A stretch of 64,000 bases of DNA from the IMG/VR virus record IMGVR_UViG_3300016476_000584, positions 117 through 64,116 of that record; one strand, given 5' to 3'. The translations under genes were made by a program, and so were the position numbers. Shown here piece after piece: positions 55,167 through 56,186 of the stretch. Below the pieces are notes generated by a model, which was given only the letters and a program-made list of their open reading frames with translations, was not told the origin of the DNA and searched no databases. Position 1 is the stretch's first letter. Every line of letters begins with the position of its first letter. The DNA is from a virus.

Positions 55167-56186
55167 AAATTTCAACTTAAAGCGTAAACAGGCTCTGGAT
55201 GATTGTGCCTGCCTTGTCTGAGACGTAAAACAGCTTGATGCGTCCTGTTTACGGTTTAAATTGAACGCTGAGGTTATCCTACTCAGCACGCGGTCGCTTC
55301 TTGTCCGCGAGGACAGTACTATGAACACTGAAGAACACTCGGCAATGTAAGCTATCATCAGACTAGTACGAGTTCTAATTGCCACCTGAAGCGGTTAAGC
55401 CGGTTACTAATCCGGCGACACTGTTTCGTCGTGTCAGATTCTGAACTGAACGGCGATAAGCTGCACTATTTTCAGGTATGCAGGCTACCTCTACCCAGCG
55501 TTGTCAGTATCGCCCTGATGCTGGTAGCTTGCAGGAGTTCATCCCCGCTCGCTTGAAAAAGTTCGTCACAAGGTTCATTTTTAGGGTTTATATGAACGCC
55601 GAGGATCAATCGGCTGACTAAACTAAAAAACAACTATAACGTGTTGCCGTATACGTGCAGACTCTGCAAACGGTTCCCAAGCCCTAGGAGGAAAGGGACA
55701 AATCTCTGGGGTGGACTGCAACCACCCATTCACAGGTTTAGTGACCTACGTCTTAGACATCTTAGAGGACAGAGAAATTAGTTGGAGTGTTTTCCCCTCA
55801 CGGCACACCGCCTATTACCCAAACTAATTTAGGTAATCACACTCCGAAGCTGATGCCTACTCACTCCGCGCACGGTAGTTTTCAGGCTTTAAATATTCAG
55901 GATGTTTTTGTTGCATTATCCGAGCTGATTAGCTGCTGTAAACATCCTATAATCAATATTATCTTATTTGAAACAGTTTAGCAAGAGAAAAGTTAAATCT
56001 GGATGAACTTGAAAGTTTCTTGATTCATGGTAAGAAATTTTTTGAAAGTTGCTGAACTCATCCAACTTATACATAACTATAACTCTTTTCTAAGCTGTTA
56101 GCAAGCGAAAAGTTAGTTTAGGCTCTACTAGCAGGCGCGGACTAGCGATTTATTGGAAAGGAAGCGCCCTTATCCATGCCTAACTT

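Follow-up and report, generated by a model that had tools for sequence, protein, structure and literature searches.

What is encoded in a gap of 1,020 nucleotides (nt) inside the transfer RNA (tRNA) array of a large uncultivated aquatic phage? The phage is represented by IMG/VR record IMGVR_UViG_3300016476_000584, of which we analysed a stretch of 64,000 nt (hereafter the window), and the gap, at window positions 55167-56186, lies between co-oriented minus-strand genes for tRNA(CAU) and tRNA-Gly(UCC) located with ARAGORN and Rfam. An initial annotation made from the sequence alone had marked this gap of about 1 kilobase (kb) as a candidate site for a large structured non-coding RNA, and our comparisons bear that proposal out: the interval is conserved in about 15 lineages, with abundant compensatory changes in base pairs and with covarying pseudoknots. 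That the locus encodes a conserved structured RNA of some kind we regard as very probable. With moderate confidence we go further, and favour the reading that the minus strand at 55949-55167 specifies a single stable RNA of about 783 nt, non-coding, structured and built of several domains, representing a new class in the niche occupied by the phage RNAs GOLLD and ROOL. It combines local helices and multi-stem junctions with at least three pseudoknots and with single-stranded motifs that are invariant.

Very large and intricate RNAs are rare in bacteria and phages, the examples being ribosomal RNAs, group II introns, RNase P, transfer-messenger RNA (tmRNA), OLE, GOLLD, ROOL, HEARO and raiA, each of which is either biochemically remarkable or an open problem. 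A new RNA of about 780 nt would provide an independent example for the question of why tRNA-rich phages carry giant structured RNAs, as well as a target for electron cryo-microscopy.

An interval without a credible gene

The array comprises 28-30 tRNAs at 44.2-63.8 kb, and the window additionally holds a permuted tmRNA (ARAGORN, Rfam). All genes and tRNAs near the gap lie on the minus strand of the window, and we therefore also use a coordinate g, equal to 56187 minus the window coordinate, in which g1 is the first base past tRNA(CAU) and g1020 the last before tRNA-Gly(UCC). The flanking genes, as called by both ARAGORN and Rfam, are as follows.

56187-56262, minus strand: tRNA(CAU), upstream of the locus
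55093-55166, minus strand: tRNA-Gly(UCC)
55011-55166, minus strand: the pair tRNA-Gly(UCC) and tRNA-Gly(GCC)

Of all stretches of the window that lack a plausible gene or tRNA, the gap is among the two longest, and its composition is balanced, as initially described (GC content 0.437; whole window 0.447). A further 970 nt or so devoid of any plausible open reading frame (ORF) lie at 5686-6658, far from the tRNA array. The initial annotation had found no credible ORF in the gap apart from one of 77 amino acids (aa) that overlaps a tRNA, and this description is accurate: the longest ORFs are that of 77 aa (55152-55385, with a GTG start), followed by those of 64 and 53 aa, and small-ORF family searches of Pfam and PHROGs matched none of them. 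Since the window contains a tRNA with a CUA anticodon, recoded stop codons were also checked. Reading TAG, TGA or TAA as sense yields no credible gene in the gap; the longest frame that a sense TAG would open has 85 codons. TGA terminates 13 of the 39 long ORFs of the window and is therefore a true stop; TGA and TAA are clearly stops, and TAG ends 2 of the 39.

A protein gene hidden by a frameshift, by stop recoding or by decay into a pseudogene could take encouragement from the amber-suppressor-like tRNA(CUA) and from the scarcity of TAG among the terminators. Yet no reading frame is conserved, gene callers leave the interval empty in all of more than 20 related contigs, and the insertion or deletion of module E (below) measures 133 nt, which is no multiple of three. 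Moreover, substitutions track base pairing rather than codons. We consider a hidden gene refuted for practical purposes, its probability being next to nil.

Homologues in uncultivated aquatic phages

We found homologues of the gap in about 15 lineages of uncultivated aquatic phages, 20 sequences in all, at 61-97% identity, and in 20 of 20 the RNA is flanked by co-oriented tRNAs. Two contexts occur, tRNA-Met followed by the RNA and tRNA-Gly(UCC), and tRNA-His followed by the RNA and tRNA-Asn, and the order of domains is identical in both, though the surrounding array has been heavily reshuffled between phages. An unusual tRNA-Asn with anticodon AUU, found in the window at 54143-54213 (minus strand), is also the tRNA directly downstream of the new RNA in one relative (L169).

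These relatives were reached with the 75-aa gene downstream of the locus (54359-54586) as an anchor. Exact look-up of its protein returned ten contigs that belong to the same population and include L075, which is 92-97% identical; homologues of the protein at 71-95% identity led to L155-L168, and a search with invariant motifs of the RNA led to L169 in IMG/VR and to L171-L181 in metagenomes. In 77 IMG/VR loci with more distant homologues of the 75-aa protein (38-56%), neither nhmmer nor a covariance model found the RNA. Other neighbours were less useful as anchors: the adjacent methyltransferase-like gene (57054-57611) moves between phages and is uninformative for synteny, none of the 65 IMG/VR loci that carry it having a homologue of the gap, and a 100-aa neighbour returned nothing in IMG/VR. 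Among the annotated phages of INPHARED, blastn with the gap and megablast with the surrounding 12 kb matched tRNAs only, and hence no cultured relative emerged. A match between a 20-mer of the 3'-terminal domain and a bacterial metagenome-assembled genome (L170) proved to be a chance 21-mer inside a GC-rich bacterial gene.

Structure conserved by covariation

The locus can be divided into the elements listed below. Of its 1,020 nt, about 783 belong to the large RNA, and module A, promoter P1, a duplicated hairpin and promoter P2 share the 237 nt that precede it.

56115-56186 (g1-72), minus strand: module A, Y-shaped and outside the large RNA; recurs in L154 and L075
56076-56104 (g83-111), minus strand: predicted promoter P1, TTGCTA-17 nt-TATAGT, from a promoter scan; in 15 of 20 sequences
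56000-56064 (g123-187), minus strand: hairpin B1, a duplicate of B2 between P1 and P2; closing helix of 7 base pairs (bp) with two covarying pairs
55956-55984 (g203-231), minus strand: predicted promoter P2, TTGCTA-17 nt-TAATAT; in 16 of 20 sequences
55949-55167 (g238-g1020), minus strand: predicted mature RNA of about 783 nt, its 5' end placed from P2 and its 3' end from the start of tRNA-Gly(UCC)
55898-55949 (g238-289), minus strand: B2, 5'-terminal hairpin of the RNA; helix g238-245/g282-289 100% paired, with covarying pairs
55779-55893 (g294-408), minus strand: domain C, a hairpin and a three-way junction; 4-5 covarying pairs in each of g342-348/g397-403 and g350-357/g366-373
55703-55775 (g412-484), minus strand: module T, a tRNA-like cloverleaf with four supported arms
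55565-55698 (g489-622), minus strand: domain D1, three hairpins and a three-way junction; 23 of 41 pairs changed on both sides
55399-55555 (g632-788), minus strand: domain D2, conserved pseudoknotted core; 25 of 43 pairs changed on both sides
55453-55513, minus strand: pseudoknot PK1 (g674-679/g729-734) enclosing pseudoknot PK2 (g704-708/g722-726), both covarying
55265-55397 (g790-922), minus strand: module E, optional, 133 nt, pseudoknotted; helices and pseudoknot covary
55171-55265 (g922-1016), minus strand: domain F, long 3'-terminal hairpin; 90-98% identity across lineages, four covarying pairs

Pairs were counted on explicit structures of each block, with 500 shuffles, and helices whose partners had been slid by 1-3 columns, as controls. 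The fraction of paired cells reaches 93.9% in D2 (shuffle mean 78.6%), 94.4% in C and T together (shuffle mean 80.8%; 28 of 47 pairs changed on both sides) and 95.2% in D1 (shuffle mean 80.4%), and across the three blocks 76 of the 131 modelled pairs are altered on both sides. In none of these blocks did any of the 500 shuffles match the observed pairing or covariation score, and slid partners were only 32-53% paired. Furthermore, when every pair of alignment columns was scanned without bias for stacks of covarying pairs, about 20 helices emerged, pseudoknots included, among them g674-679/g729-734 (six double changes in six pairs), g350-357/g366-373, g342-348/g397-403 and the acceptor-like helix g412-417/g479-484 of module T. 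The many local helices noticed in the initial annotation are real, and conserved across relatives. The same annotation had proposed an alignment-based structural check on homologues, naming lack of covariation or a frameshifted gene in relatives as grounds for abandoning the idea; covariation is strong, and a frameshifted gene is absent from every relative compared.

The pseudoknots provide some of the clearest cases. In PK1 the apical loop of one hairpin pairs with a downstream strand, and PK2 does likewise for the next hairpin. PK1 is 100% paired, with five of five pairs covarying by pair counting and six of six in the unbiased scan, and takes forms that include GCGAUA/UAUCGC, GCAGUU/AACUGC, GAUGCA/UGCAUC and GAUACA/UGUAUC. 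In PK2 four of five pairs covary (CUGCA/UGCAG, CUAGAC/GUCUAG, ACUGUG/CACAGU, UGCG/CGCA, CUACA/UGUAG), and the pseudoknot of module E (g804-809/g841-846) covaries too. Single-stranded motifs between the helices are invariant (GGGAUGAACUCC, CGUUCAGUUCAGAAUCUG and CAGACAAGGCAGGCACAAUC); those of D2 are GGGAUGAACUCC and CGUUCAGUUCAGAAUCUGACACGACGAAACAGUGUCGCCGGAUUAGUAACCGG, and a covariance model built on that domain (R1) scores 172.9 bits on the window copy. Domain F is a stem some 21 bp long with an inner hairpin that carries CAGACAAGGCAGGCACAAUC, and has the strongest folding z-score of any block (-4.3). The first apical loop of D1 is a palindrome, CCUAGG, which varies to UCUAGA.

This pattern bears on the possibility that the gap is a non-functional spacer, a graveyard of decayed tRNAs, or a promoter and leader region of the tRNA-Gly operon. 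Such a reading would accommodate the promoters described below, the degenerate look of the tRNA-like element and the recombinogenic nature of tRNA arrays. It is contradicted by the covariation, given that 94-95% pairing maintained through 76 double substitutions is unexpected of neutral sequence, as are covarying pseudoknots and invariant motifs of up to about 50 nt in lineages that differ by 30-39% elsewhere, and we judge it very improbable.

A function at the level of DNA (a replication origin, a packaging signal or a recombination site), or an unrecognised self-splicing intron or other ribozyme, might also be proposed, in view of the long and nearly invariant inverted repeats of domain F, the palindrome in D1, and the fact that large pseudoknotted RNAs are often ribozymes. 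However, helix cells contain 83 G-U pairs against 18 A-C, and the selected molecule is therefore the minus-strand RNA, neither duplex DNA nor the opposite strand. Models of RNase P RNA, group I and group II introns, HEARO and small self-cleaving ribozymes find no match at E<=10 in the gap or its relatives, and the RNA is flanked by complete tRNA genes, not by split exons. We give explanations of this kind very little weight. Likenesses noticed by eye to conserved regions of RNase P, to the hammerhead CUGAUGA and to group II domain V found no support from Rfam or involved a motif that is base-paired.

Promoters and ends of the RNA

The initial annotation had reported internal direct repeats in the gap and listed them among its hints of RNA structure. 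The repeats are present exactly as described (55978-55991 and 56098-56111), but their interpretation as RNA structure does not stand, since they are parts of promoters: the repeat near 56100 sits in P1 and that near 55976 in P2, in each case as the -35 and upstream portion, and the motif is not a general repeat elsewhere in the window. Judged by sequence and conservation, the two elements are predicted to be tandem sigma-70-type promoters. Across lineages the -35 element remains TTGnnn and the spacer exactly 17 nt. The -10 variants of P1, which has the same 17-nt spacer, retain TAnnnT, and that of P2 changes at positions 3-5 only (TAATAT, TATTAT, TACTAT, TAACAT, TATAAT), its end always lying 5 nt ahead of hairpin B2. 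P1 with B1 is a tandem duplicate of P2 with B2, and is missing in L159, L165 and L174. We find no other conserved promoter-like motif in the interval, whether inside the body of the RNA or between the RNA and tRNA-Gly, and no terminator-like site was detected in 54200-56700.

Transcription would accordingly begin at P2, and in most lineages also at P1, just ahead of the 5'-terminal hairpin, which suggests a 5' end at about g238, directly ahead of B2. The transcript would continue through the RNA into the two tRNA-Gly genes, which are presumably co-transcribed with it. Cleavage by RNase P at the 5' ends of tRNAs is an established step of tRNA-precursor processing. In 11 lineages 4 nt separate the end of domain F from the start of tRNA-Gly(UCC), and RNase P would thus be expected to set the 3' end of the RNA, its cut at tRNA-Gly(UCC) freeing a molecule of about 783 nt that extends 4 nt past the 3'-terminal hairpin. 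With a transcript start at B2 and an RNase P cut after F, stems would protect both ends of the RNA.

One RNA or several

The tRNA-like module T lies in the middle of the proposed RNA and bears on whether one molecule or several are produced. It has a 6-bp acceptor (100% paired, four covarying pairs), a 3-bp D stem (93% paired), a 6-bp anticodon-like stem (85% paired, five covarying pairs) and a 6-bp T stem (79% paired, four covarying pairs), so that a four-armed cloverleaf is kept by covariation. Features of a canonical tRNA are nevertheless lacking: the T-loop is UUGCAGU rather than UUCRANY, the D-loop is without GG, and there is no 3' CCA. The anticodon-like loop in the window is 8 nt long (UCACUAAA) and contains CUA, as it does in L075, L167 and L173; other lineages have differing sequences. 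Neither ARAGORN nor Rfam RF00005 calls module T in the window, RF00005 does not match the variant of L177 at E<=10, and only the module of L075 is called by ARAGORN, as tRNA(CUA). On these sequence features, module T is best described as a structural, non-decoding tRNA mimic.

An alternative is that the locus yields a string of small structured RNAs, the transcript being cut at module T (by RNase P and RNase Z or E) and at the downstream tRNA to give B2-C (about 175 nt), D-F (about 400-530 nt) and a tRNA-like fragment, comparable to the species 1 and 2 of phage T4. The recognition of module T of L075 as a tRNA by ARAGORN would fit such cutting, as would the recurrence of module A on its own. 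This module, of about 65-70 nt, recurs at L154:18413-18480 (minus strand), upstream of tRNA-Phe and with compensatory changes, a second copy lies inside an insertion of L075, and it may be a tRNA-trailer or processing element. A structured string is also suggested by the neighbouring spacer of 424 nt beyond the tRNA-Gly pair, which is likewise structured; structured spacers may therefore be general in this array. On the other hand, the order B2-C-T-D-(E)-F is kept in two unrelated tRNA contexts amid gene-by-gene reshuffling, a single promoter position precedes the whole block with none conserved within it, and hairpins stand at its two termini. Furthermore, efficient processing at module T is uncertain, because it has no canonical T-loop, D-loop or CCA. 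We consider a string of small RNAs possible but rather unlikely, and retain the single multi-domain RNA as the preferred reading.

Several observations nonetheless weigh against a single RNA, or against the strength with which it can be argued. All well-supported helices are local, spanning less than 100 nt and joining no two domains, and no long-range helix that would close the whole RNA is supported by covariation, the sole candidate (g334-341/g746-753) joining two invariant segments. Module E is present in the window, L075, L158, L163, L166-169 and L176 and cleanly absent from L155, L156, L159, L165 and L171-175; some lineages have insertions between B2 and C and between C and T, or a 120-nt module between F and the tRNA, and these elements have been gained and lost independently of one another. 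Module T could itself be a processing site at which the transcript is cut. Homologues were found in a single clade of uncultivated phages only; the MAFFT alignments used for scoring had also served in part to derive the structures; and kinship among the sequences inflates the shuffle test. Finally, folding z-scores range from -0.6 to -4.3, are modest for some blocks, and are similar on the opposite strand. Long-range helices proposed by a global RNAalifold fold (g334-349/g739-753 and g375-381/g732-738) were rejected: they show no covariation, and the competing helix g342-348/g397-403 has four covarying pairs.

Possible roles

If the single RNA is real, its functional parts would be the internal tRNA-like cloverleaf and the conserved, pseudoknotted 3' core. 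The likely target of the RNA during infection is the machinery for translation, tRNA or RNA surveillance. More speculatively, it could be a scaffold or decoy that bears a tRNA mimic and engages a partner that binds tRNAs or structured RNAs, for which tRNA-processing enzymes, the ribosome and a Ro60-like protein of the phage might be imagined as candidates. GOLLD assembles as a homo-oligomeric (14-mer) nanocage, and both GOLLD and ROOL have recently been shown to form RNA-only nanocages. A bolder version of our proposal, which we regard as improbable, is that the new RNA constitutes a third independent class of tRNA-island RNA that self-assembles, for example through the CCUAGG/UCUAGA loop, into a particle displaying or enclosing the tRNA mimic, or that it is a giant Y-RNA-like partner of Ro60. 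The palindromic apical loop is a possible kissing-loop contact for self-assembly, and an intramolecular pair would also explain it.

Genomic context

The window encodes enzymes of nicotinamide adenine dinucleotide salvage, a PstS-like protein, an SPFH protein, a TilS-like enzyme and a Dps-like protein. Between tRNA-Gly(GCC) and the 75-aa gene lies the ORF-free spacer of 424 nt mentioned above (54587-55010, minus strand), which is 75-92% conserved, has open frames of at most 63 codons, and yields a consensus fold of 77 pairs, 93.9% paired and 29 with double changes. This spacer probably encodes another structured RNA or serves as a structured leader. The apparently empty spacers of phage tRNA arrays can thus be dense with conserved RNA structure.

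Directly downstream of the array, a 478-aa protein (42168-43604, minus strand) carries DUF2828 and DUF7788 and belongs to phrog_850, annotated 'RNA-binding protein'. It has no sequence match in the PDB and no informative depositor names, and a fold search alone led to Ro60: the only full-length PDB matches of its AlphaFold model (predicted local distance difference test, pLDDT, 69) are Ro60 structures (9nep_A, E 9e-6, template-modelling score 0.48). Any link between the RNA and this protein is speculative, because homologues of its gene occur in 711 cultured, mostly tRNA-rich phages without the new RNA. The model for the Y RNA YrlA (RF02553, gathering threshold 69 bits) finds nothing inside 55167-56186 at E<=10, and matches weakly, at 18-29 bits, in two places, 55061-55125 (overlapping the tRNA-Gly genes) and 54255-54323. 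The latter (minus strand), an element resembling the tRNA-like domain of YrlA, has counterparts of about the same score (~29-30 bits) at L158:1904-1971 and, in Caulobacter phage phiCbK, at L182:103-170, and could be either a degenerate tRNA or the Y RNA with which the Ro60-like protein partners.

Several tRNAs of the array are themselves unusual. That at 51971-52043 (minus strand; 43.8 bits in Rfam, no ARAGORN call) has the loop CCCUAAC with anticodon CUA, C33 in place of U33 and an encoded CCA; from its sequence it looks like an amber suppressor, and relatives share it, labelled 'Pyl' or '???' by ARAGORN. In a 114-nt match to the tRNA model at 44216-44329 (minus strand; 49 bits, no ARAGORN call), some 41 inserted nt follow the region of the anticodon arm; the gene could contain an intron or encode a tRNA that is unusual in another way. 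There are three tRNA(CAU) genes (48833-48908, 56187-56262 and 63762-63838), and a TilS-like PP-loop protein (49400-49999, minus strand; PF01171, E 2e-31) is encoded within the array, on which account at least one of the three may be a lysidine-modified tRNA-Ile2. The tmRNA (23193-23655, minus strand) is of the permuted, two-piece alphaproteobacterial type, with tag peptide ANDNVAPVKLALAA, and hints at an alphaproteobacterial (or cyanobacterial) host; phiCbK has such a tmRNA beside its GOLLD. Together, the RNAs, the Ro60-like protein, the tmRNA, the TilS-like enzyme and the suppressor-type tRNA look like a large toolkit for manipulating translation and RNA quality control.

Comparison with known RNAs

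The initial annotation had considered the gap a natural place for an RNA of the GOLLD or ROOL type. The setting is as it supposed, a phage RNA beside tRNAs, whereas the identity is not: nothing matches GOLLD, ROOL, HEARO, RNase P or an intron. Rfam 15 returned nothing on the gap at gathering thresholds, nor permissively at E<=10 on a 2.1-kb slice (54200-56300), and the Infernal search suggested at the outset thus came back negative, while genuine GOLLDs score 165-168 bits alongside. A 2023 catalogue of 10,006 phage structured RNAs describes short elements (mean length 67 nt), and its descriptions include nothing recognisable as the gap RNA.

Among smaller RNAs, the tRNA cluster of phage T4 encodes 'species 1' and 'species 2', stable, single-domain non-tRNA RNAs of about 120-140 nt that are co-transcribed with the tRNAs and freed by tRNA-processing enzymes. 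The new RNA resembles them as a non-tRNA RNA inside a phage tRNA cluster, and differs in having about 780 nt, many domains and pseudoknots. Ro60/Rsr proteins bind Y RNAs that bear tRNA-like domains, YrlA measuring about 110 nt. The presence of a tRNA-like domain in a non-coding RNA, together with a Ro60-like protein in the same genome, recalls YrlA; unlike YrlA, the new RNA is about 780 nt long, and no Ro-binding helix was identified in it.

ROOL is a large, ornate pseudoknotted RNA that averages 581 nt in length; phages and prophages encode it, often close to tRNAs with which it may be co-transcribed (PMC5737381). Its model (RF03087) finds no match at E<=10 in the gap and relatives, and none at E<=1 window-wide. 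In addition, ROOL derives from rumen and Firmicutes sources, in contrast to aquatic phages with an alpha-type permuted tmRNA, and no embedded tRNA-like module is described for ROOL such as the new RNA has.

GOLLD is a close parallel in setting and layout. It lies in phage tRNA islands and has a variable 5' and a conserved 3' region, sometimes with linker tRNAs, and in one case is found downstream of tRNA-Met (PMC12286853). The new RNA is likewise longer than 700 nt, is located in a phage tRNA island on the strand of the tRNAs, downstream of tRNA-Met, and is less conserved in its 5' part than in its pseudoknotted 3' part, with a tRNA-like element in the middle. The co-oriented location in a phage tRNA island is, however, shared by ROOL, and so is no proof of membership. 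GOLLD itself occurs in the same phage group (L154, L174), and that of phiCbK neighbours a permuted tmRNA, tRNA-Met and tRNA-Gly(UCC), the last nested inside the RNA.

A highly divergent GOLLD or ROOL that escapes the Rfam models would explain this shared niche and layout (PMC12286853), and short resemblances to GOLLD env-38 (UGAGUAGGCA and GAGUAGGnUAAnCUC) could be cited in its favour. Nevertheless, no homology in sequence or structure is detectable in either direction. The GOLLD model (RF02032, gathering threshold 150 bits) finds no match at E<=10 in the gap or in the homologous RNA of 7-8 relatives, and none at E<=1 in the whole window, while the positive controls score 165.3 bits (phiCbK), 168 bits (L154) and 121 bits (L174, shortened by a contig end). 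Conversely, model R1 scores 162-173 bits on members of the new family but has no match in L182, in L154 or in the part of L174 that holds its GOLLD. A profile of the family run with nhmmer finds nothing in GOLLD env-38, and a Smith-Waterman alignment to env-38 scores 22, against a shuffle mean of 22.3, which places the likeness seen by eye at chance level. Moreover, one IMG/VR contig (3300016476_001020) holds both a GOLLD (L154:9293-9751, minus strand) and the new RNA (L169), and in L174, where tRNA-Met precedes the new RNA, a GOLLD (5989-6297, minus strand) is found directly upstream of that tRNA. Given that the models miss each other and that one contig holds both, these are separate RNAs able to co-occur, and a divergent GOLLD or ROOL is largely refuted, retaining in our estimation only a slight chance.

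Compared with GOLLD, then, the new RNA has linearly strung domains with no demonstrated closing helix, its own tandem promoters, and a terminal hairpin that abuts a tRNA. It accompanies GOLLD in some relatives, and GOLLD was not detected in the present 64-kb window, which is part of a genome. If the new RNA, which co-occurs with GOLLD in some phages, replaces it in others, the two would offer a natural comparative handle on what the giant RNAs of phage tRNA islands do during infection.

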